Below are positions 21,146-30,629 of a stretch of DNA of 64,000 bases, in pieces; positions within the stretch are counted from its first letter, which is position 1; each line of letters opens with the position of its first letter. The stretch comes from an uncultured delta proteobacterium. GTDB lineage: Bacteria > Myxococcota_A > Polyangia > Polyangiales > Houyiibacteriaceae. Both the position numbers and the translations under genes were made by a program. The notes below the pieces were generated by a model. The model ran no database searches. It was given only the letters and a program-made list of their open reading frames with translations, and was not told the DNA's origin. The DNA is taken from the NCBI GenBank assembly GCA_963704865.1, contig CAVPIE010000014.1, positions 69,937 through 133,936 of the forward strand, given 5' to 3'.

Positions 21146-21193
21146 GCCCCGAACTTTGACGGAATACTCTACCGTCTAGGGGGTTGAGAGGCT

Positions 21194-21577
21194 GTGATGG
21201 TCACGGAACCGGTGCTGGATTGGAGCGTTGCGAGGTGTCGGCCAGGCCGGCGCATTGCGCTATCCGCGCTCCTTCTGGTGTCTGTGCTGGGTTTCTCTCC
21301 CCGTGCGGAGGGCGATCTCACGGCAGATCGGAGCGCCGAGGCGAAGCCCTCGGCAGCCCCATCTCACGCGCACCCGGGCTCTGCCGTGGTGCGCTTCGCC
21401 GCAAGCGTCGACGAGCTCATCGACCCGGTCGAGGATGACCACCTTGGCTCCGAGCCCCTAGCCGCGCCATCTTTCGAGGCTCCCGAATCTCCTGCGAGCT
21501 ATGGCTGCCTCTCAGCCCCGCTCGACAGCCAATCGCTAGTTTCGTCGAATCCGGCTCGCGGTCCGCCTTCCAGCTGA
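21194..21577 (+). CDS. small hypothetical secreted protein
   Basis: Signal-like segment (RIALSALLLVSVLGFSPRAEG) and mostly G/C at third codon positions. No recognisable domain. Weak call. Confidence 0.35.
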   Translation: MMVTEPVLDWSVARCRPGRRIALSALLLVSVLGFSPRAEGDLTADRSAEAKPSAAPSHAHPGSAVVRFAASVDELIDPVEDDHLGSEPLAAPSFEAPESPASYGCLSAPLDSQSLVSSNPARGPPSS

Positions 21578-21666
21578 CGAAGCCCCCGAGGGTTTCGTCT
21601 CCCGTGTGTGTGATTGCCCCAGATCTCCGGGGCAACGTTGTGTTCTGAGCACGAAGGCGGATTGTC

Positions 21667-23268
21667 ATGTCGAATGTTGTATCGAAGGAAGGGCCACGCA
21701 GCCCGTTCCCAGTTGCCGATTTGAAGGCAGGTTTCTTAGTTTTCCTGATCGCCCTTCCCCTCTCCCTGGGGATCGCGATGGCCAGTGGATTCCCCCCGAT
21801 CGCGGGCGTTCTGACCGCGATCATCGGAGGGGTCATCGTCACGTTTCTCGGTAGCGCACGCCTGACGATCAAGGGGCCCGCGGCCGGACTCATCGTCATC
21901 GCATTGGGGGCGGTACAAGAGCTTGGGGGAGGAGATCCGATGCTCGGCTACCGTCGAGCCCTAGCGGTCGGGACGGTCGCCGCAGGCGTGCAAATTGCGT
22001 TCGCCCTCCTTGGCGCCGCCTCGATCGGCGTAGCGATGTCTCCCTCTGTGGTCCACGGCATGTTGGCCGCCATCGGTGTGATCATCATCTCGAAGCAAGT
22101 GCACACCCTGTTGGGCGTAGCGCCGGAGGCCAAGGAACCATTGGAGTTGCTCGCCGAAATTCCGAAGAGCATCGCGCATGCCAATCCCGAGATACTGATC
22201 CTTGGTGCTCTCTCGCTACTCATCCTTTTTGGATGGCCTCTGATTCGGACGCGATGGGCAAAAGCCATCCCGGCTCCGGTGCTGGTCCTCGCGGTGGCAG
22301 TGCCACTGAGCTTGTGGCTCAATTTGGACCACTCGCACGCCTATCAGTTTCTATCGCACCAGTTCCACGTTGGGCCGGAGTTCCTGGTGCAACTACCGGG
22401 CTCGCTCCTCGACGCGTTCGTATTCCCGGATTTTTCGATGGTGTTCAGTGCCGCGTCCCTGAAATACGTAGTGATGTTCGCCCTGGTCGGAACGATCGAG
22501 TCGACCTTGAGCGTGCTCGCAGTCGACTCGATGGACCCGGAGAAGCGCCCGTCGAATCTGAATCGTGATCTCCTGGCTCTTTCTTTGGGGAACCTCTGTT
22601 CGTCTCTGGTCGGCGGGCTTCCGATGATTTCCGAGATCGTTCGAAGCAAAGCGAACGTCGATGCTGGCGCGCAGTCCCGATGGGCGAACTTTTTTCATGG
22701 CGCATTTCTGCTGACATTCGTCGCTCTGGCTCCCGGCTTGCTGCACGAAATTCCGCTCGCGGCCTTGGCGGCAATGCTGGTCTACACCGGCGCACGACTC
22801 GCATCACCCCGTGAGCTGTGGCACGTCAAACAGATCGGTCTGGATCAGCTCGCCCTCTTCGTCACTACACTCATCATCACTCTCGCGACCGACCTTCTAA
22901 TTGGCGTCGCAGCCGGCCTCGTGCTCAAGGTCATTTTGCACCGCGTCCGCGGGGCGACTTTCAGCCAGATCTTCCGTGCGCGCGTCGAGAAGAGTCAGCA
23001 AGGCTCCGAATTGCGCTTGACGCTGCACGGTGCAGCGGCTTTCACGAGCCTCATCTCGGTCAGGAAGTCCCTCGCGGATCTCGATCCTTCCTGCCGGAAA
23101 GTGGTGATCGATGTGAGCGACGCCGCGATCGTTGACCATACGTTCTTGAGTCGCCTCGAGGGTCTATCCAACGAGTGGCCGAATGTGGAATTGGAGGTGG
23201 TGGGGATCGAGGCACTGACGCCGCATTCGCCGCATCCGCACTCAACCCGTCGAAGGACCGCTTCATGA
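21667..23268 (+). CDS. SulP-family anion transporter with C-terminal STAS domain (sulfate/bicarbonate permease type)
   Basis: Typical SulP N-terminus (DLKAGFLVFLIALPLSLGIAMASGFPPIAGVLTAIIGG), about 10-12 TM helices, STAS-like tail (ELRLTLHGAAAFTSLISVRKSL..VVIDVSDAAIVDHTFL). The stop overlaps the dabA ATG. Confidence 0.9.
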   Translation: MSNVVSKEGPRSPFPVADLKAGFLVFLIALPLSLGIAMASGFPPIAGVLTAIIGGVIVTFLGSARLTIKGPAAGLIVIALGAVQELGGGDPMLGYRRALAVGTVAAGVQIAFALLGAASIGVAMSPSVVHGMLAAIGVIIISKQVHTLLGVAPEAKEPLELLAEIPKSIAHANPEILILGALSLLILFGWPLIRTRWAKAIPAPVLVLAVAVPLSLWLNLDHSHAYQFLSHQFHVGPEFLVQLPGSLLDAFVFPDFSMVFSAASLKYVVMFALVGTIESTLSVLAVDSMDPEKRPSNLNRDLLALSLGNLCSSLVGGLPMISEIVRSKANVDAGAQSRWANFFHGAFLLTFVALAPGLLHEIPLAALAAMLVYTGARLASPRELWHVKQIGLDQLALFVTTLIITLATDLLIGVAAGLVLKVILHRVRGATFSQIFRARVEKSQQGSELRLTLHGAAAFTSLISVRKSLADLDPSCRKVVIDVSDAAIVDHTFLSRLEGLSNEWPNVELEVVGIEALTPHSPHPHSTRRRTAS

Positions 23269-26246
23269 CCTCCGTTGCAAGCGAGTCTCTCAGCCTGTCC
23301 AGCTCGAAATCGACTGCGAACGCGACGCTTGGTGAGCTGCTCGACCACGCAGCGGACCTGCTTCCTCAGCAGTCTCCGCTGCATATGTTCGTTCATCACA
23401 ACACCTTGCATGCCTTTGAGCACCTTCACTTCGAAGAAGCCGTCGTCGAGGCCGCTGCGCGCTTCGGTACCGAGCCTTACCAGTCCGAAGCAGCCTTCGA
23501 CGAGTGCATCGAGTCGGCGAGAATTCGTTCGGCCGACATTGAAAACGTAGTCAACGCGTCCATCGAGGACTCAGGAGGCCCTGTGATAGCCGGAGGGCCG
23601 ACGCGACGGGAGATGCGGGCCATACGTCTGAGCAATCTCTTCGAGATCCCACAGGGTCCTGCGCTCAACTGGATGCTCGAAGAGACGGGGACGCTGTTTC
23701 GCTTCCACCGTCGCGTGCCGGAGTCGGCCCGGGCTGCGATCCTACAGTCCGCCGAGCGTGTCTCCCTCGGCGGGAACTCCAGCACGCCAGAGGCGCGTGA
23801 AGAGCAGGCCCTCGAGCAGATCTGGAGGGAGCTGCTCGCCGTCGCTCCGACCTCCCCCCGCGCCCGCACCGGCATCAGGCGGCGCGACCAGATCCTCGAA
23901 GTCTGCGGCATTGATACCGATCACTTCGTCCACCCCCTTCTGATTCGTGTCTGCGCCGCTTTCGTCGATCAGGGGATCGCGTATTGGGAGATGCCGGGAC
24001 GAGATGCGGGTTTGCTCGAAGTCTTCCGCTCTCTCTACGGAATCGGGTCGGGTCCTTCCGATCGCTGGATGGAAGGGCTTTCAAAGCAGCTGAGACTCCA
24101 GCAAAGCGAGCGATGGGACGCAGACCGGACGGTGCGCTGGGCACTGGAAGAGCTCGATGTCCCCCACGCGCAATGGGCTGGGTACATCGAAGAGACCCTG
24201 TTGTCGCTTCCAGGTTGGGCGGGCATGATTCGGCAGCTGGAGCTGCGTCCCGACACGGCGCCCGTCGACCCTCCCCGCGCCCGACTCCTCGACTACCTCG
24301 CGCTGCAGCTCAGCCTCGACCTGCACGCCGCTCGCTTCGTCATTCGAACACGGGCTGGTGGGCCGGACGCGTTCGCTGAGATGCTATCGCTTCGGACGGA
24401 CGCCAAACGAGAGAGCGACCTCGATCTCGAGCTCGTCTACGAAGGCTTCATCACGGCCCAGCTCGCCGGACTCGGGCCGGCGGAGCTTGGAGGACGGGAA
24501 GCAGCGAAGCGCTGGCTCGAAGAGGTCGGCGGATTCGATTCGAACGAACGGCGCCGGCTCTTGCACCTCGCGTATGAAAGAAGGCACCGCATCGGGGTGC
24601 TCGACGGAATCGTGGGTCACTGCCGATTCAAACGCAGGCAAGCGGCACAACCTCGCTTTCAAGCCGTATTCTGTATCGACGATCGCGAGGAGTCGCTTCG
24701 CAGGCACCTCGAAGAGATTCGGCCGGACGTCGAGACCTTCGGATACGCGGGCTTCTTTGGCATCGCGATGGCGTATCAGGGCATCGAGGACATTCGTCCG
24801 AGGCCGCTATGCCCTGTGGCCGTTCTCCCAAGCCACTACGTCAGGGAACGCGCCCTCGACGAGGGCGAAGCTGCCGTGTTTGCCGAGAAGCGTCGCAGAC
24901 GAGGACAAATGACTCACTCGATCGGACTCGGAAGCAGAATGCTGACCCGCGGCGGGGTCCTCTCTGCCTTGTTCGGATTCTTGGCGATCATCCCACTTCT
25001 TGGGAGGAGCCTGTTTCCTCGCGCCACGGAGCGTCTAGCGCACAGGATCTCGCACAGGACAGCACCCATGCCTCCGACGCGCTTGTGCCTCGAACGCGCT
25101 CCAGGCGAGCGACCCGACGGGCTCGCGTTGGGCTACACGATCGATGAAATGGCGGATGTCGTGTCCGGAGCACTTACGACGATGGGGATGGCGGGACAGT
25201 TGTCGTCGCTGGTCCTGATCGTCGGGCATGGCTCCTCGAGTCTCAACAACCCTCACGAAGCGGCACACGACTGCGGTGCGACGGGTGGGGGACGCGGGGG
25301 CCCCAACGCGCGTGCCTTCGCTGAGATGGCCAATGAACCACGGGTTCGAGAACGGCTTCGAAGCAGAGGACTCGTCATCCCTGATTCGACCTGGTTCGTC
25401 GGCGCATATCACAACACCTGCGACGACTCGATGACGTACTACGAAGAAGATCGGGTCCCGGCAGAGTCGCTGGAGGCGCTGGCGGACGCGAAGCGCGCGT
25501 TTGCAGACGCCTGCCGACTTGATGCGCACGAGCGCTGTCGCCGTTTCGAGTCAGCGCCCCTGGGTCTGGATCCCGAGGCAGCGCTGGCACACGCCGAGGC
25601 GCACGCCTACGATCTCGCGCAGCCAAGGCCCGAGTATGGGCATGCAACCAACGCCGTTTGCATCGTGGGCCGCCGAGCACGGACACGTGGGTTGTTTCTA
25701 GATCGGCGGGCCTTTCTCGTGTCGTATGATCCCGAGAGCGACTCGACCGGGGCGATTCTGGCTCAGCTCCTTCGCTCGGTTGGACCGGTCGGCGCCGGGA
25801 TCAACCTGGAATATTACTTCAGCTTCGTCGATCCCACGGGCTACGGTTGCGGGACCAAGCTTCCCCACAACATCGTCGGGCTCGTCGGTGTGATGGATGG
25901 GCACGCATCGGACTTGAGAACGGGTCTTCCTTGGCAAATGGTGGAGATCCACGAGCCGGTTCGGCTACTCACGATTGTCGAGGCGGAAACCGAGGAGTTG
26001 GTGCGCATTCTCGAACGCGACTCGGCACTTGCGAACTTGGTGAACAACGAGTGGATCCAACTGGTCGCTTGGGACCCAAGAAGCGACGCCTTGGCGGTCT
26101 ACGAGAATCGGCGATTTCAGCCGTATGTTCCGGAAAATCCCGCCATCGCCGTAGTTGGCCGTTCCGTCGACTTCTACTCCGGCCGGCGAGGGCATTTGAG
26201 CCCGGCCCACGTCAAGGCCGGGTTGCTCGAATACGGTGCGGCATGA
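23265..26246 (+). CDS. dabA: DabA (DUF2309/PF10070) beta-carbonic-anhydrase-like subunit of a DAB inorganic-carbon pump
   Basis: ORF trimmed to MTSVASES (ATG 23265, ATGA overlap with sulP). DUF2309 hallmark SPLHMFVHHNTLHAFE. CxDxR-type site FCIDDRE and GHGSSSLNNPHEAAHDCGATGG. Confidence 0.85.
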   Translation: MTSVASESLSLSSSKSTANATLGELLDHAADLLPQQSPLHMFVHHNTLHAFEHLHFEEAVVEAAARFGTEPYQSEAAFDECIESARIRSADIENVVNASIEDSGGPVIAGGPTRREMRAIRLSNLFEIPQGPALNWMLEETGTLFRFHRRVPESARAAILQSAERVSLGGNSSTPEAREEQALEQIWRELLAVAPTSPRARTGIRRRDQILEVCGIDTDHFVHPLLIRVCAAFVDQGIAYWEMPGRDAGLLEVFRSLYGIGSGPSDRWMEGLSKQLRLQQSERWDADRTVRWALEELDVPHAQWAGYIEETLLSLPGWAGMIRQLELRPDTAPVDPPRARLLDYLALQLSLDLHAARFVIRTRAGGPDAFAEMLSLRTDAKRESDLDLELVYEGFITAQLAGLGPAELGGREAAKRWLEEVGGFDSNERRRLLHLAYERRHRIGVLDGIVGHCRFKRRQAAQPRFQAVFCIDDREESLRRHLEEIRPDVETFGYAGFFGIAMAYQGIEDIRPRPLCPVAVLPSHYVRERALDEGEAAVFAEKRRRRGQMTHSIGLGSRMLTRGGVLSALFGFLAIIPLLGRSLFPRATERLAHRISHRTAPMPPTRLCLERAPGERPDGLALGYTIDEMADVVSGALTTMGMAGQLSSLVLIVGHGSSSLNNPHEAAHDCGATGGGRGGPNARAFAEMANEPRVRERLRSRGLVIPDSTWFVGAYHNTCDDSMTYYEEDRVPAESLEALADAKRAFADACRLDAHERCRRFESAPLGLDPEAALAHAEAHAYDLAQPRPEYGHATNAVCIVGRRARTRGLFLDRRAFLVSYDPESDSTGAILAQLLRSVGPVGAGINLEYYFSFVDPTGYGCGTKLPHNIVGLVGVMDGHASDLRTGLPWQMVEIHEPVRLLTIVEAETEELVRILERDSALANLVNNEWIQLVAWDPRSDALAVYENRRFQPYVPENPAIAVVGRSVDFYSGRRGHLSPAHVKAGLLEYGAA

Positions 26247-27610
26247 TGGAAACGCTTGTCGATGGCTTGGTGATTGGCATCGTAGGCTTTCCGGTGCTCG
26301 CCGTCTTCGTGCTCGGCTTGCGGGCCTGGCTCGATCGAGCGTGGAGCGAGCGAGCGACCGTCACGATCGTAGGTTTGGCGTTCAGCGCTTCCCTAGCCTC
26401 ATCTACGCTGACTGCGGGATGGCTTCTGCTGCGCGATTTCGCGGAAGTCCGCGTGCACTTGGGCAGCTGGTTCTCTGCCAAACACTATTCGTTCGATTGG
26501 AGTCTCGTCGCCGATCATCTGTCGATCCCGTTTGCAATCTTCTCGGCTGCTTTGCTCGGCCTGGTCGCGGCATTCTCGCGGAGGTATTTGCACCGCGAGC
26601 CGGGTTTCTCACGGTTCTACCTGCTGCTGACCATTTTTGGCGCTGCGGTCGAGTTCGTCGTCCTCGCGGGAAGCCTGGACTTGGCCTTTATCGGATGGGA
26701 GCTCGTCGGCCTGACGTCAGCTCTCTTGATCGCGTTCTTCCACGAGAGGCGCGCGCCGGTCGAGCACGGCCTCCGTGCCTTCGTCACCTATCGGCTCTGT
26801 GATATCGGTTTGCTCTCCGCCGCCGTTGCACTTCACCAGATGGTCGGTACCTCCGATGTCGTACCTTCCCCGACGGGTCCATGGGCGAGCTTCGTCGTTC
26901 CGGACACCGTGCTCGGGGCGACCGTGGTCGGCTTGCTCCTTCTCTGGGCGTCGATGGGCAAAGCGGCCCAAGTGCCCCTGTCGGGATGGCTGCCCCGTGC
27001 GATGGAAGGTCCCACTCCTTCGAGCGCCGTCTTTTATGGGGCGCTCTCCATTCATCTCGGGCCCTATCTCCTGCTTCGCGCCACATCGATTCTCGAGTTC
27101 TCCGGGGTCGCAGCGGGCTCGGTAGTCGCCGTGGGAGCGCTCACGGCGCTGCACGCGACGTTCGTGGGCCGCACGCAAAGCGACATCAAAAGCGCCCTCG
27201 CATACGCGTCGATGACCCAAGTTGGGCTGATCTACGTGGAGATCGGCCTTGGCTTCTACCACCTCGCCGTGGCCCATATCGTCGGCCATGCCGCCATTCG
27301 AACGCTCCAGATCCTCCGTTCGCCGAGTCTCCTTCACGACTACCATCATCTCGAACAAGCGATGGGAAAGCAGCTCCCCCGAACCGGCGGACATCTCGAA
27401 CGCCTAGTGCCGACGGCACTGCAGCCCTGGCTCTATCGCGTCGCTCTAGAGCGCGGGGGCTTCGACGCTTTTCTCAAAGACCACGTCATTGGGCGAGCGC
27501 TAGCCGTGCTCTCGTGGCTGGATCGACTGGACCGGGCCTGGGTTGACTATCTCACGAAACCAACACCGGCCAAGAAGTCACGTCAGCAGCGGGACGAGGT
27601 GACGTCATGA
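26243..27610 (+). CDS. dabB: DabB, NuoL/MrpA-like proton-conducting membrane subunit (PF00361)
   Basis: ORF trimmed to MMETLVDG (ATG 26243, ATGA overlap with dabA). GWELVGLTSALLIAFF and PLSGWLPRAMEGPTPSSAVFYGAL motifs of NuoL/MrpA-type subunits. Confidence 0.85.
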   Translation: MMETLVDGLVIGIVGFPVLAVFVLGLRAWLDRAWSERATVTIVGLAFSASLASSTLTAGWLLLRDFAEVRVHLGSWFSAKHYSFDWSLVADHLSIPFAIFSAALLGLVAAFSRRYLHREPGFSRFYLLLTIFGAAVEFVVLAGSLDLAFIGWELVGLTSALLIAFFHERRAPVEHGLRAFVTYRLCDIGLLSAAVALHQMVGTSDVVPSPTGPWASFVVPDTVLGATVVGLLLLWASMGKAAQVPLSGWLPRAMEGPTPSSAVFYGALSIHLGPYLLLRATSILEFSGVAAGSVVAVGALTALHATFVGRTQSDIKSALAYASMTQVGLIYVEIGLGFYHLAVAHIVGHAAIRTLQILRSPSLLHDYHHLEQAMGKQLPRTGGHLERLVPTALQPWLYRVALERGGFDAFLKDHVIGRALAVLSWLDRLDRAWVDYLTKPTPAKKSRQQRDEVTS

Positions 27611-28992
27611 CACTCGTATTTGCGGCTCTGCAACTCCTTCTTCTCCTCCCCATGGCCTGGTTCGTCGCGCGCTCGCCCTCGTCACGAACAGCCCGTCACC
27701 GCGCTAGCTACGCGATGGGTCTCACCGGCTTGCTTGCGCTCACCCACGTCAGCTGGCGCGTACTAGGAGCTCCCATGCTCGAGCGATCCGCCGACTGGGT
27801 CGCGATGGAGGACCCGCACTCCTGGGCTCCCGCATTCTCGTTGATTACCTGCCTGATCGGCTATGCCGCGATCGTCCTCAGTCCAATTCGTGGAACGCGT
27901 CCAAAGACATTCGCGAGGATTTTGCTTCTCATCGCGATCGCGTTGGTCTTCCTGGTCATTCGCCATCCGATCGGGCTTGCCGTCCTCTGGGGCGCTTCGG
28001 CGCTCATCGTGTGGCTCGAGTTACGAGAGATGCGACGAACTCGAAGTACGGCGAGGTTATTCGCCATTTATCATGTGCCGAGTGTCGTCGCGCTTGGAAT
28101 CGGCGCGGTGCTGCTCAGTCGAGGCGAGTCCACGGTTGGGCTCGTGTTTCTCCTCGCCGGCATCGGAATTCGCGAAGCCGTGATCCCGCTCCACAGTTGG
28201 TTCCCCCCGTTCGTGCAATACGCACCCATGGGACTCGTTGTGGCGTTCTTTGCACCACAACTGGGCGTCTATGCGCATCTCGAGTTGCTCCGAGGGGAGC
28301 TCCCGTCGCAACTTGCTCACGGGGTGGCGTCTCTCGGTGCGATCACTGCGGTGGTCGCCGCAGCTCTCGGCATTGCACAAACGGACGCGCGGCGCGCGCT
28401 CGCATTCTTGATAATGAGCCAGACAGGGCTCGTGGCCTTCGGCCTGGATACGAGCTCTCCCGTTGCCCAGATTGGCGCATTGCTCACATGGCAAGTGATA
28501 GGGGTGGCAACCGCCGGCTTCGCAATGACGCTCGCCTCTCTCGAAGCCCGGCGTGGGAATCTTTCGGTCAATGTCCCGGGCGGGAGTTTCACCCGAACGC
28601 CGCGCATGGCTGTCGCTTTTCTCTTCATGGGTTTTGCAAGTGTGGGCCTGCCGCTGACGCTCGGTTTCGTAGCCGAAGACCTCTTGGTTCAGGGATCGGT
28701 CGATGAGTTCCCACTACTTGCCTTTGCATTGATCGCCGCGACGGCGCTCAACGGGATCGCTGTGATGCGAGCGTTCTTCACGTTGTTCAGCGGATCTTCC
28801 AAGCACATTGGGGAACGTGACCTGACCAGACGTGAAGCAGCCGTACTGACGATGTTGATGGCCACGCTCCTCATCATGGGTCTGTTTCCGGGGCAGACCG
28901 TTCGGCGGCTCGAGCGCGTCACCGAGGGTGATGCCCAGCCCGTTACCGTCGTCCAGACGCTCGACGTCTCGCCCGACGCGCAACGGCCTTGA
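27607..28992 (+). CDS. second, divergent NuoM/N- or MrpD-like antiporter-type membrane subunit
   Basis: ATGA overlap with dabB. About 13 TM helices. Degenerate version of the PF00361 core (IPLHSWFPPFVQYAPMGLVVAFFAPQLG in place of ..LH.WLP.AMEGPTP..). Confidence 0.7.
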   Translation: MTLVFAALQLLLLLPMAWFVARSPSSRTARHRASYAMGLTGLLALTHVSWRVLGAPMLERSADWVAMEDPHSWAPAFSLITCLIGYAAIVLSPIRGTRPKTFARILLLIAIALVFLVIRHPIGLAVLWGASALIVWLELREMRRTRSTARLFAIYHVPSVVALGIGAVLLSRGESTVGLVFLLAGIGIREAVIPLHSWFPPFVQYAPMGLVVAFFAPQLGVYAHLELLRGELPSQLAHGVASLGAITAVVAAALGIAQTDARRALAFLIMSQTGLVAFGLDTSSPVAQIGALLTWQVIGVATAGFAMTLASLEARRGNLSVNVPGGSFTRTPRMAVAFLFMGFASVGLPLTLGFVAEDLLVQGSVDEFPLLAFALIAATALNGIAVMRAFFTLFSGSSKHIGERDLTRREAAVLTMLMATLLIMGLFPGQTVRRLERVTEGDAQPVTVVQTLDVSPDAQRP

Positions 28993-29860
28993 ACACGCGC
29001 TGAAACATCGCGGCGTCGCCGCTTGCCGGCTTGCGCTGGTCTTTTTTGTCACCCGACTCTGGGTAGAGCTGGTATGCGGCGTTCAGGATGCGATCGACGG
29101 CATTCGGCGCCACCCCATAGGCGAATTCGAATAGATTTCCGACAGGGGTGGCCACCCGTTTTGGCTGACGGACGATGCCGTCCGCCACTAGGTCGGCAGC
29201 TTCTTGGGCGCTCCGCATCGGAAACGAGTCGTAGATCGTCGTCGATTTCATCATCGGCGTCTTGACCAACGGCATGTAGATCGTCGTGACCTTGACCCCG
29301 TCCTTCAGCGCTTCGACTGCCAGGACTCGGCTAAATGCGTCGAGTGCCGCTTTGCTCGCGATGTAAGCGCCGTAGCGCGGAACGTTCACCTGGACCCCGA
29401 TCGTCGACACGTTGAGGATCTGCCCGCTCTTCTGTGCGCGCATACCCGGAAGAAATCCCATGATGAGACGCACCGCGCCCAAGAAATTGAGAGCGAGCGT
29501 CCGCTCGAAGTCGTGCACCCGATCGTAGGACTTGGCGACACTTCGGCGAATCGAAATTCCTGCATTGTTGACGAGGATGTCGACTTGGCCGTGGTCAGCA
29601 AGAATGGCGGCGATCAGACGCTCGGTGTCCTCGGCGTTCGATAAGTCGCCAGGATACGCGAATGCCGTTCCGCCGCGCCCCTCGATGCTCTTCTTCATAT
29701 CTTCGAGCTTGTCGGCGGATCGGGCGACGAGCAGGACCTTTGCCCCGGCGTCCCCCAATCGATTGGCCAGCGCTTCCCCAATCCCGCTCGAAGCGCCGGT
29801 GATCGCGACGGCACGGCCGGAAACCCGTTCGCGCAAGGCGCTATCTTCGGAGTCGGTCAC
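28943..29860 (-). CDS. short-chain dehydrogenase/reductase (SDR), classical family with C-terminal extension
   Basis: C-terminal 305 aa of ORF 28943..30376, with a GTG at 29860 (or a TTG at 29836). ITGASSGIGEAL, NNAG, YGAYIASKAAL (YxxxK). The 3' end overlaps the convergent 27607..28992 gene by 50 nt. Confidence 0.8.
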   Translation of the reverse strand: MTDSEDSALRERVSGRAVAITGASSGIGEALANRLGDAGAKVLLVARSADKLEDMKKSIEGRGGTAFAYPGDLSNAEDTERLIAAILADHGQVDILVNNAGISIRRSVAKSYDRVHDFERTLALNFLGAVRLIMGFLPGMRAQKSGQILNVSTIGVQVNVPRYGAYIASKAALDAFSRVLAVEALKDGVKVTTIYMPLVKTPMMKSTTIYDSFPMRSAQEAADLVADGIVRQPKRVATPVGNLFEFAYGVAPNAVDRILNAAYQLYPESGDKKDQRKPASGDAAMFQRVFKAVARRARRRASGRR

Positions 29861-30629
29861 CGGCGAAGCGTAGCCCAGTCGATGCGCTCTGCGGCGAAAA
29901 ACATTTGTTAATCGTCGATCTCGCGGCCATGCAGGCGTTGAATGTGTCGGGCGTTGTCGCCCTCGACGAGGTGAATGCGTTTGTCTGAGCCGGCCCGGCG
30001 TCGACGCTCTGCACATCCAAGCCCGGACCAAGCACGTCTTCGACAAACACCCCCTCGAGCTCTGCCGAACGGCCTTCCTCCGTCGGAATGGCATCGAGGA
30101 ACTCATCGATGAATTGATTCGACTTCCCCATCCGAAAGAGAAGTGCAACGACCAAGTAGTTGGGCGGATCATCGGCCGAAAGACCAGGACGTGAATGCAC
30201 CAAGTGCATCTCCATGGGATAGGTGATGCCGTCGACGAGATGCTCAGAAGGCGTGTGAAAATGAAGCTGCATGAACTCGTAGCTGTTGCCGTCGAACTCC
30301 GTCGTGGTGCCCGTGCGGAAGTCGAGCTGCACGGTGTGTCCGAGATTCTGTACCTGGTCTGCGCCATCTCCAGCATTGAGATGGATGGTGTGCCTCCCCT
30401 CTTCGGCCTCGCCGGAAAGGATGTTCACGGGGGACTGGAGTAGTCCATGCTCCAGGCCGGGAAGCGCGTAGTAGTGACCAGATGCCGACTCGCCGCCCGA
30501 GCCCTTGGACTTCTTCGCAGATACGACTGCCGCGTCGCATGGGGGACAAGACTTGGAAGCACAGCCCATGCCAGTCATGAAGACCATCAGCGTTCCGAGG
30601 GCGCTGCCGAGGACACTTCGTGAGCTCAT
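29841..30629 (-). CDS. alpha-carbonic anhydrase lipoprotein, with a possibly frameshifted or decayed 3' end
   Basis: Lipobox MTGMGC. Exact alpha-CA signature SEHLVDGITYPMEMHLV with the HFH..H zinc histidines. No GSLTTPPC/Thr199 loop downstream in this frame (see findings). Confidence 0.75.
   Translation of the reverse strand: MSSRSVLGSALGTLMVFMTGMGCASKSCPPCDAAVVSAKKSKGSGGESASGHYYALPGLEHGLLQSPVNILSGEAEEGRHTIHLNAGDGADQVQNLGHTVQLDFRTGTTTEFDGNSYEFMQLHFHTPSEHLVDGITYPMEMHLVHSRPGLSADDPPNYLVVALLFRMGKSNQFIDEFLDAIPTEEGRSAELEGVFVEDVLGPGLDVQSVDAGPAQTNAFTSSRATTPDTFNACMAARSTINKCFSPQSASTGLRFAGDRLRR

Follow-up and report, generated by a model that had tools for sequence, protein, structure and literature searches.

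A SulP-linked DabA-DabB-DabC-type module in an uncultured delta proteobacterium points to a third class of DAB

What would an inorganic-carbon pump be doing in a bacterium that looks heterotrophic, and is it one of the pumps already known? The question is posed by four consecutive genes within a 64,000-nucleotide stretch (the window) of contig CAVPIE010000014.1, from an uncultured delta proteobacterium. They encode a SulP-family transporter, a homolog of the vectorial carbonic anhydrase subunit DabA, and two membrane proteins related to the NuoL and NuoM subunits of complex I. We propose that the operon probably specifies a DabA-DabB-DabC-type vectorial carbonic anhydrase with a dedicated SulP; the former would use the proton-motive force to trap CO2 as bicarbonate and the latter would transport bicarbonate, in a heterotrophic host. 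Judged by its sequences, the locus is no freak expansion and appears to belong to a widespread third class of DAB, apparently undescribed.

Outside the cyanobacteria, DAB complexes are the main CO2 pumps, and they are targets in the engineering of crops and industrial microbes. DAB1, known from cryo-electron microscopy (cryo-EM) of the Thermocrinis albus complex, is a heterotrimer of DabA, DabB and DabC; its DabC aligns with the NuoM helices beside NuoL, carries hydrophobic residues where the proton path would be, shows no water chain, and is essential (bioRxiv 10.64898/2026.05.01.722082). DAB2 (PDB 9rd0, a 2026 cryo-EM structure) is a DabA2-DabB2 heterodimer. Of the 15 transmembrane helices (TM) in DabB2, TM1-11 resemble those of NuoL, and TM12-14 pack in a rearranged form around a "finger" of DabA2 that bears Glu444. 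The two 2026 structures disagree on how proton flow drives one-way CO2 hydration, notably on the finger Glu and the rearranged TM12-15. MpsAB-type pumps occur in heterotrophs, where they stand in for carbonic anhydrase (PMC6689103).

The four genes and their relatives

The four open reading frames (ORFs) lie in a row on the + strand:

21667..23268, + strand: gene 1, SulP/SLC26-family anion transporter (PF00916)
23265..26246, + strand: gene 2, DabA, cytoplasmic beta-carbonic-anhydrase-like catalytic subunit (PF10070; matches DabA2 of PDB 9rd0)
26243..27610, + strand: gene 3, truncated NuoL-like DabB (PF00662 and PF00361; hhalign to DabB1)
27607..28992, + strand: gene 4, full-length NuoM-like DabC homolog (partial PF00361; AlphaFold2, Foldseek and hhalign)

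The products are 533, 993, 455 and 461 amino acids long, DabA being counted from the ATG that overlaps the sulP stop codon, and successive genes share an ATGA at 23265-23268, 26243-26246 and 27607-27610. Pfam assigned gene 1 to PF00916 (E = 1.6e-53; 182 bits against a cut-off of 23.2) and gene 2 to PF10070, DabA (E = 2e-243; 810.6 bits against 25), with profile positions 2-747 covered. Gene 3 matched PF00662 and PF00361, and gene 4 matched PF00361 over part of the profile only (E = 7.5e-19). In DabA, SPLHMFVHHNTLHAFE occupies residues 37-52, FCIDDRE lies at 469 and GHGSS..HDCGATGG at 654-675. Residues C470/D472/R474/H655/C670 align to C351/D353/R355/H524/C539 of the solved DabA2 (9rd0_A), and all five, the zinc ligands and the Asp-Arg dyad, are unchanged in 79/79 relatives. 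By this alignment, DabA has a complete predicted beta-carbonic-anhydrase zinc site.

A DabA search with one genome per species returned 594 relatives; the locus counts given here rest on the best 80 of them, at 41-77% identity. Judged from record titles, these 80 represent about 11 phyla: Myxococcota, Planctomycetota, Actinomycetota (Actinosynnema, Saccharothrix, Actinokineospora and Pilimelia), Acidobacteriota, Vulcanimicrobiota, Elusimicrobiota, Verrucomicrobiota, Spirochaetota, Thermodesulfobacteriota, Bdellovibrionota and Pseudomonadota. The order DabA, gene 3 homolog, gene 4 homolog was found in all 61 loci with at least 3 kb of downstream sequence. A 4-nt overlap was the most frequent type at each of the three junctions (23/38, 45/76 and 38/69) in related loci from many phyla, and the ATGA overlaps of the window are therefore not due to chance. 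On this sequence evidence, the four genes form a predicted operon with translational coupling, whose layout is kept across about 11 phyla.

A SulP of the same clade adjoins the module in 32 of the 44 loci with enough flank on both sides. In 27 it lies upstream; in the other five, all from Planctomycetota, it lies downstream of gene 4. As a contrast set, 120 metagenomic loci were fetched by the DabA1 signature motif, and motif counts are given over 113 of these. Same-clade SulP was present in one of the 113 and in none of four two-gene plasmid DAB loci inspected; because it is nearly absent from both groups, the SulP link is a property of the window clade. Bit scores place the window DabA about equally far from DAB1-type and DAB2-type DabA, which are closer to each other, and for this reason we regard the clade as a third DAB lineage.

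SulP has a membrane domain at residues ~17-425 followed by a short, divergent STAS-like C-terminal domain (~430-533). Against the equivalog models of NCBIfam it scored 160 bits for DauA (cut-off 614) and 111.5 bits for BicA (NF050096; cut-off 880), and among solved structures the BicA membrane domain (6ki1, E = 1e-18) comes nearest. SulP transporters of chemolithoautotrophs rescue Escherichia coli that lacks carbonic anhydrase (PMC12628692), and a SulP gene that shares an apparent operon with a carbonic-anhydrase gene is regarded as a likely bicarbonate carrier (PMC13147460). By analogy, the window SulP most plausibly carries bicarbonate.

Much of the initial annotation, made from the window sequence without database searches, survives this comparison. 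It had proposed a translationally coupled inorganic-carbon module, which agrees with the DabA family assignment and the conserved junctions. Its coordinates for the four same-strand genes and their overlaps were exact, 4-nt overlaps recur in relatives, and the motifs that it quoted (those of DabA given above, and GWELVGLTS and WLPRAMEGPTPSSA in gene 3) are all present. The profile matches also bear out its naming of gene 2 as DabA and of gene 3 as a NuoL/MrpA-type protein, and it was right that the gene content looks heterotrophic. Gene 1 had been called a SulP permease with a STAS domain. The permease is clear; the STAS domain scored 13.2 bits against a PF01740 cut-off of 22.6 (E = 0.078) and has indirect support, in that alignments to SLC26 structures run into this region and PF13466 is recorded for some homologs. 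The description of DAB as a two-gene unit has been overtaken by the DAB1 heterotrimer (bioRxiv 10.64898/2026.05.01.722082), and the supposed unusual expansion is the standard layout of a large clade, with both membrane genes after DabA in 61/61 loci and SulP in 32/44.

The cultured planctomycete Poly30 carries the same four genes; other individual loci vary this layout. In a metagenome-assembled genome of Haliangium sp. (L020, 2700-16048), one sulP is followed by two tandem dabA-gene 3-gene 4 trios, the copies being 56% identical to the window DabA. The sole DAB1-motif locus with a window-clade SulP (L170, 2143-8586; 47% identical, 416 bits) encodes a long DabC that has no Pfam match, and may be intermediate between the classes.

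The membrane subunits and the catalytic site

The best PDB matches of gene 3 are NuoL/ND5 (140-150 bits, against 97 bits for DabB2), and DabB2 (9rd0_B) aligns to residues 88-373 only. After about residue 365 there is no hydrophobic segment; that is, TM12-15 are absent. The AlphaFold2 (AF2) model has a mean predicted local distance difference test (pLDDT) score of 82 and aligned to NuoL over ~370 columns in Foldseek, and hhalign matched the gene 3 family to DabB1 at 100% over TM1-11. Gene 3 is thus a NuoL-like truncated DabB, composed of TM1-11, short cytosolic helices and a long C-terminal helix. In the tail, WLYRxALERG is conserved and residues 406-438 are predicted (AF2) to form a long helix, for which a weak profile match (33%) to the extreme C-terminal helix of DabB1 was obtained. 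The positions of interest in DabA and gene 3 are as follows:

24672..24686, + strand: DabA Cys470-x-Asp472-x-Arg474, first zinc ligand and Asp-Arg dyad (DabA2 alignment; codons checked)
24939..25019, + strand: DabA hydrophobic hairpin, residues 559-585 (the sole hydrophobic stretch in DabA)
25227..25274, + strand: DabA His655...Cys670, second and third zinc ligands, within GHGSSSLNNPHEAAHDCGA (DabA2 alignment)
25641..25643, + strand: DabA His793 (in RPEYGH), where the active site of DAB1 and DAB2 has Leu (motif comparison)
26699..27301, + strand: charged/polar axis of gene 3, E153 (TM5), R184/D187, K240 (TM7), Y265 (TM8), K316, E333 and H345/H349/R353 (TM11) (conservation)
27338..27607, + strand: cytosolic tail of gene 3, residues 366-455 (conservation; AF2 helices)

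Among 72 relatives of gene 3, little or no variation is seen at E153, D187, K240, Y265, K316, E333, H345, H349 and R353; for R184, conservation is at least 90% in this set and complete in an alignment of 46 closer relatives. E153 preserves the TM5 Glu that two-gene DabB has lost (NuoL TM5 Glu is Ile151 in DabB2; PDB 9rd0). The H-x3-H-x3-K/R motif and the short post-TM11 cytosolic helices are also retained. In DAB1, TM11 residues H308/H312/K316 and the post-TM11 helices couple to the NNPYESALDCGACGG loop of DabA, and the TM8 His of T. albus DabB (H229, equivalent to H260 of DabB2) is essential (bioRxiv 10.64898/2026.05.01.722082). At this TM8 position gene 3 and its relatives have Tyr265 (72/72), compared with His in 39/39 at DAB1-motif loci, and in TM11 they have Arg353 (72/72), compared with Lys in 66/67.

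The window DabA departs from both solved types as well. Its zinc-ligand motif (GHGSSSLNNPHEAAHDCGA) is unlike those of DabA1 (NNPYESALDCGACGG) and DabA2 (NNPHRAGLDCGACAG), the coupling loop is NNPHEAAHDCGATGG where DabA1 has NNPYESALDCGACGG, and the second DabA1 motif, DW(xxx)RPEWGL, reads DLAQPRPEYGH. The Leu of this motif is L825 in DAB1 (bioRxiv 10.64898/2026.05.01.722082). Its DabA2 counterpart, Leu658, replaces the Gln/His of ordinary beta-carbonic anhydrases and is described as "strictly conserved among 150 homologues" (PDB 9rd0). Leu658/Leu825 are reported to be strictly or broadly conserved across DAB2 and DAB1, and the Leu has been proposed to disfavour bicarbonate binding; an L658Q DabA2 gained no free carbonic anhydrase activity and was still functional in vivo. 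Position 793 is His in 79/79 members of the window clade, whereas all DAB1-motif loci (113/113) and all two-gene plasmid DABs (4/4) read RPEWGL. The hairpin at residues 559-585 aligns to the finger/elbow region of canonical DabA, which inserts into the membrane in DAB1 and DAB2, but it is shorter and lacks a conserved acidic residue at the position of E444 (DabA2). The lid motif GxAGFFG is retained. The truncated DabB, His793, Tyr265 and Arg353, which go beyond the initial annotation, are the most distinctive features of the locus.

In sequence searches only residues ~170-435 of gene 4 aligned, to NuoM TM7-14. The AF2 model, built with 52 homologs (pLDDT 87, predicted template modelling score 0.88), has a complete 14-helix antiporter-like fold, for which Foldseek ranked NuoM first (template modelling score 0.84) and NdhD3 of NDH-1MS second (6tjv_D). 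Between dabB and dabA at DAB1-motif loci lies an ORF of either ~250 or ~436 amino acids; these DabC candidates were identified by position only. When compared with the gene 4 family by hhalign, the short class matched the C-terminal half of gene 4 (95.9%, E = 6e-9) and the long class the full length of gene 4 (98.7%, E = 5e-16); control comparisons of the DabC classes with the gene 3 and SulP families gave 5% or less. Because of these matches to positional DabC (95.9-98.7%), we regard gene 4 as a full-length DabC homolog with ~14 TM, in place of the second DabB ("DabB2") of the initial annotation. The proposal that the module has two proton-conducting subunits becomes doubtful, since gene 4 has lost the TM7 and TM8 Lys and its TM12 acid is conserved among nearer relatives only.

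The comparison suggests a series from a NuoM-like subunit through long DabC and gene 4 to short DabC, and suggests that the third subunit of the clade is an ancestor-like form of DabC. The short candidates had no Pfam match, and PF00361 was found in two of three long candidates and in 59/60 gene 4 orthologs. The third subunit slips under PF00361 detection even inside the window clade: the gene 4 ortholog of the planctomycete Poly30 (CP036434; L085, 14833-16308) has 491 amino acids and no Pfam match at E ≤ 0.1. Five DAB1-motif metagenomic loci (L093, L099, L108, L114 and L120) contain two tandem DabB-like genes (~566 and 578 amino acids), then a long DabC of ~436 amino acids and dabA1; Pfam was checked for the long DabC of L099 and L108, both of which still matched PF00361 weakly.

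Conservation within gene 4 is uneven (0.38 for the N-terminal half against 0.54 for the C-terminal half). The TM7 Lys is replaced by Arg189 (53/57) and the TM8 Lys by Gln, Leu or Met; a TM12 acid (E or D) is present in 31/57 members clade-wide, with E357/D358 conserved among nearer relatives. In relatives at least 44% identical, E138, R189/E190, Q218 and E357/D358 are invariant or nearly so.

Other identities for the membrane genes were considered and rejected. Genes 3 and 4 are not a split DabB, as gene 4 is a complete NuoM fold and aligns to NuoM TM7-14, not to the DabB C-terminus. A shifted boundary, making gene 4 a fusion of DabB TM12-15 with short DabC, is contradicted by the hhalign result for the C-terminal 212 residues of DabB1 against the gene 4 family (0.3%) and by the coexistence of full-length DabB and long DabC in DAB1 loci. 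MpsC of Staphylococcus aureus was discounted as a counterpart of gene 4, being dispensable and staphylococcus-specific. A DUF6671 gene beside dabA on the Ideonella plasmid was set aside as a DabC by position, since it does not lie between dabB and dabA.

In three close homologs of gene 4 and one related locus, an alpha-carbonic anhydrase is fused to the C-terminus (L004, 14352-16385, from Myxococcales SG8_38; P0018; P0019; P0024). The added domain matches PF00194 at 59-75 bits, and the proteins are 72-75% identical to gene 4; gene 4 of the window has no such domain. NuoM topology places the C-terminus in the periplasm, where bacterial alpha-carbonic anhydrases normally act. Charge distribution in the sequence (positive-inside rule), the helices of the AF2 model and this topology together predict a periplasmic C-terminus for gene 4 and hence a periplasmic location for the fused domain, which would fit delivery of CO2 to an inward pump. 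In a further locus (L023, 11290-11946), a beta-class carbonic anhydrase (PF00484) with no obvious signal peptide is encoded less than 5 kb from the module. Related ORFs, which cluster with this one, lie near the module in L008, L031 and L042, the PF00484 match having been checked for L023.

A proposed mechanism and its alternatives

If the DAB1 and DAB2 structures are a guide, DabA and the products of genes 3 and 4 would form a membrane complex. Driven by the proton-motive force, protons would pass along the gene 3 axis (E153/K240...H345/H349/R353), and their flow would be relayed by the post-TM11 cytosolic helices to the NNPHE..DCGA loop of DabA. This relay would gate the one-way hydration of CO2 that has diffused into the cell, leaving it trapped as bicarbonate. 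Gene 4 would be mainly a structural or allosteric partner, as has been proposed for DabC. In DAB1 and DAB2 the periplasm-side part of the path is formed or flanked by helices that gene 3 does not have, so this part must come from elsewhere. The C-terminal half of gene 4 is an obvious candidate, because it abuts the TM5/TM7 side of the NuoL-like subunit in complex I geometry, and, speculatively, this conserved half may supply that part of the path. With less confidence, we suggest that SulP imports bicarbonate, so that both CO2 and HCO3- routes would be served; that the fused alpha-carbonic anhydrase of some relatives would interconvert CO2 and HCO3- in the periplasm at the complex; and that in a heterotrophic host the product would feed bicarbonate-using carboxylases at low CO2.

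Several observations weigh against this proposal. The whole clade is known from sequence alone. Three positions that are strictly conserved or essential in DAB1 and DAB2 are altered (Leu to His793, TM8 His to Tyr265 and TM11 Lys to Arg353), gene 3 has no TM12-15 and the DabA hairpin has no finger Glu; the coupling mechanism, direction or substrate may therefore differ. SulP is not obligatory, as 12 of the 44 loci have none adjoining, and its scores lie so far under the BicA and DauA equivalog cut-offs that family score does not fix its substrate. A cytoplasmic-looking beta-carbonic anhydrase near the module, as in L023 and perhaps the three loci with related ORFs, would short-circuit the bicarbonate pool.

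How far do these departures favour another explanation? Gene 4 could be a second active proton-conducting subunit, with two channels in series, as in NuoL and NuoM, and a higher H+/CO2 stoichiometry. Its full 14-helix NuoM fold and the near-invariance of E138, R189/E190, Q218 and E357/D358 in relatives at least 44% identical would suit this role, as would the retention in gene 3 of E153, which faces the neighbouring subunit in complex I and which two-gene DabB has lost. We nevertheless consider it rather unlikely, given the replaced TM7 and TM8 Lys, a TM12 acid in only 31/57, the poorly conserved N-terminal half and the hydrophobic residues, with no water chain, of the homologous DabC in solved DAB1. 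More doubtful still is the idea that SulP carries some other anion, such as sulfate or a dicarboxylate, or exchanges anions, using or balancing the bicarbonate made by DAB (for example, through HCO3-/anion antiport of the kind seen in SLC26 exchangers). The solved structure nearest to it is that of BicA, the chemolithoautotroph SulPs rescue carbonic-anhydrase-free E. coli (PMC12628692), SulPs in apparent operons with carbonic anhydrase genes are thought to carry bicarbonate (PMC13147460), and the alpha-carbonic anhydrase fusions point toward supply of inorganic carbon; on the other side, the DauA model outscores the BicA model with all equivalog cut-offs missed, SLC26 relatives include exchangers and a fumarate transporter, and the tight, conserved coupling to DabA would suit a partner that consumes its product.

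The altered active site invites the notion that the module is reversible or runs backwards, SulP bringing in bicarbonate and the His793 form of DabA dehydrating it with consumption of a cytoplasmic proton, for pH homeostasis or CO2 supply. His793 restores the hydrogen-bond donor of canonical beta-carbonic anhydrases at the position where Leu was proposed to make bicarbonate binding unfavourable, gene 3 has another residue in place of the TM8 His that is essential in DabB, and a beta-carbonic anhydrase gene lies near the module in L023, with related ORFs in three other loci. His793 and Tyr265 do leave room for different coupling or even reversibility, but the L658Q result in DabA2, which is no free carbonic anhydrase and works in vivo, argues that one residue alone is not uncoupling. 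We can see no energy logic for sustained reverse cycling, the periplasmic alpha-carbonic anhydrase fusion fits inward CO2 delivery, and we hold this notion to be very improbable. Least credible of all is that genes 3 and 4 form a Na+/H+-translocating Mrp-like or respiratory module unrelated to carbon, as MpsABC was first interpreted. The PF00361 membership and weak matches to MrpA/MrpD and NuoL/NuoM models would allow it, but those matches all fall far under the equivalog cut-offs, no nuo or mrp genes adjoin, the pair is always fixed beside DabA and gene 3 is without TM12-15.

We thus favour the DabA-DabB-DabC-type pump with its dedicated SulP. A stronger version, which we advance tentatively as possible rather than likely, is that the clade is a mechanistically distinct, perhaps ancestral-like third DAB class, with a complete NuoM-type third subunit, a DabB without TM12-15, the canonical beta-carbonic anhydrase His and SulP as an integral partner in a "transport metabolon". 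The clade, which includes culturable actinomycetes and planctomycetes, offers ready-made variants for testing models of DAB, as its members are without the finger Glu and TM12-15 and have key residues altered. If members are active, they would be natural experiments indicating that vectorial CO2 hydration can do without the finger Glu, TM12-15, the active-site Leu and the TM8 His; another possibility is that bicarbonate is handled differently in this class, for instance reversibly or jointly with SulP. The clade also ties DabC to a NuoM-like origin, and its conserved pairing of a CO2 pump with SulP, sometimes with a tethered periplasmic alpha-carbonic anhydrase, broadens the view of bicarbonate supply in non-autotrophs.

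Surroundings of the module and comparison with known systems

Best database matches indicate that the host is a Polyangiales-like member of the Myxococcota. The module is flanked upstream by a DctP gene in the opposite orientation and downstream by a convergent short-chain dehydrogenase/reductase (SDR) gene. Besides these two, the genes of the window have a heterotroph-like character (FAD oxidase, glutathione S-transferase, acyl-CoA dehydrogenases, short-chain fatty acid transporter, amidase and CorA); no Calvin-cycle or other carbon-fixation genes were seen among the window ORFs scanned, and the neighbours of genes 3 and 4 are unrelated, with no other nuo or mrp genes adjoining. Two non-coding features were noted:

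21146..21666, + strand: intergenic region of 520 nt from the divergent DctP gene to sulP, presumed promoter and 5' leader
29025..29050, + strand: terminator-like hairpin and T-run, 33 nt past the gene 4 stop (pattern scan only)

The region before sulP is unusually long and contains a 127-codon ORF (21194-21577). A scan of this leader gave no consensus sigma-70 promoter match, and neither there nor elsewhere was there an Rfam match to a regulatory RNA at E ≤ 1. The SDR gene (28943-30376, minus strand) shares 50 nt with the 3' end of gene 4 (28943-28992), and the hairpin sits in its 3' end; terminator-like sites in the region are no more numerous than the shuffled expectation, which makes the hairpin a weak call.

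In ten related loci (L044, L050, L051, L053, L058, L061, L062, L073, L074 and L075), a sigma-54-type response regulator (receiver and AAA+ domains), assigned by eye from a representative sequence and not by Pfam, recurs upstream of the module, mostly in divergent orientation. A PAS histidine kinase is encoded in an overlapping set of loci. This suggests dedicated two-component control of the module in Planctomycetota and others; the regulator/kinase pair is not present in the window. The plasmid two-gene DABs (L081-L084, from Salinivibrio, Methylocystis, Pantoea and Ideonella) all have dabB followed by dabA and a divergent LysR regulator, and the Methylocystis pair adjoins bioD and a crotonyl-CoA carboxylase/reductase gene.

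No description of a dabA operon with a truncated DabB, a PF00361-type DabC and SulP was found in the literature searched, although an earlier mention is possible; nor did that literature mention an operon joining SulP to DAB, or dabA accompanied by two PF00361 genes. Database names for these proteins are generic. Among the closest known systems is DAB1 (T. albus; H. neapolitanus Hneap_0907-0909), which likewise has a large DabA of ~1000 amino acids with a buried beta-carbonic anhydrase site, a NuoL-like DabB and a NuoM-derived third membrane subunit. Its DabC has ~250 amino acids and no Pfam match, whereas gene 4 has 461 amino acids, 14 helices and a PF00361 match; its DabB1, of ~560 amino acids, has the TM12-15 that gene 3 lacks, with TM8 His and TM11 Lys in place of Tyr and Arg. 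DAB1 further has the strict DabA1 motifs NNPYESALDCGACGG and DW(xxx)RPEWGL, in contrast to NNPHEAAHDCGATGG and DLAQPRPEYGH, and the gene order A-C-B or B-C-A, in contrast to A-B-C plus SulP.

The DAB2/DAC/MpsAB systems (H. neapolitanus DabA2B2, PDB 9rd0; S. aureus MpsAB) share the PF10070 and PF00361 pair, the zinc ligands and the Asp-Arg dyad with the window. Identity between window and DAB2-type DabA is ~30-35%, over half of DabA only. These systems have no third subunit, and their DabB2 has 15 helices and has lost the TM5 Glu that gene 3 keeps as E153; the finger Glu444 and Leu658 of DAB2 are both missing from the window DabA. Cyanobacterial NDH-1MS (NdhF3-NdhD3-CupA) also has a NuoL-like and NuoM-like pair that bears a vectorial carbonic anhydrase, but CupA is unrelated to DabA and the pair belongs to the redox-driven NDH-1 complex. 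Gene 3 scored 138 bits against the ndhF3_CO2 model (cut-off 589), and the best scores against complex I equivalog models were 229 bits for NuoL (cut-off 556) and 100 for NuoM (cut-off 264). BicA and other SulP bicarbonate transporters resemble gene 1 in their PF00916 fold and in the genetic coupling of SulP to a carbonic-anhydrase-type enzyme. In the SulP-carbonic anhydrase operons the partner is a free carbonic anhydrase, whereas the window SulP, with its short and divergent STAS domain, is paired with what would be an energy-coupled DabA.

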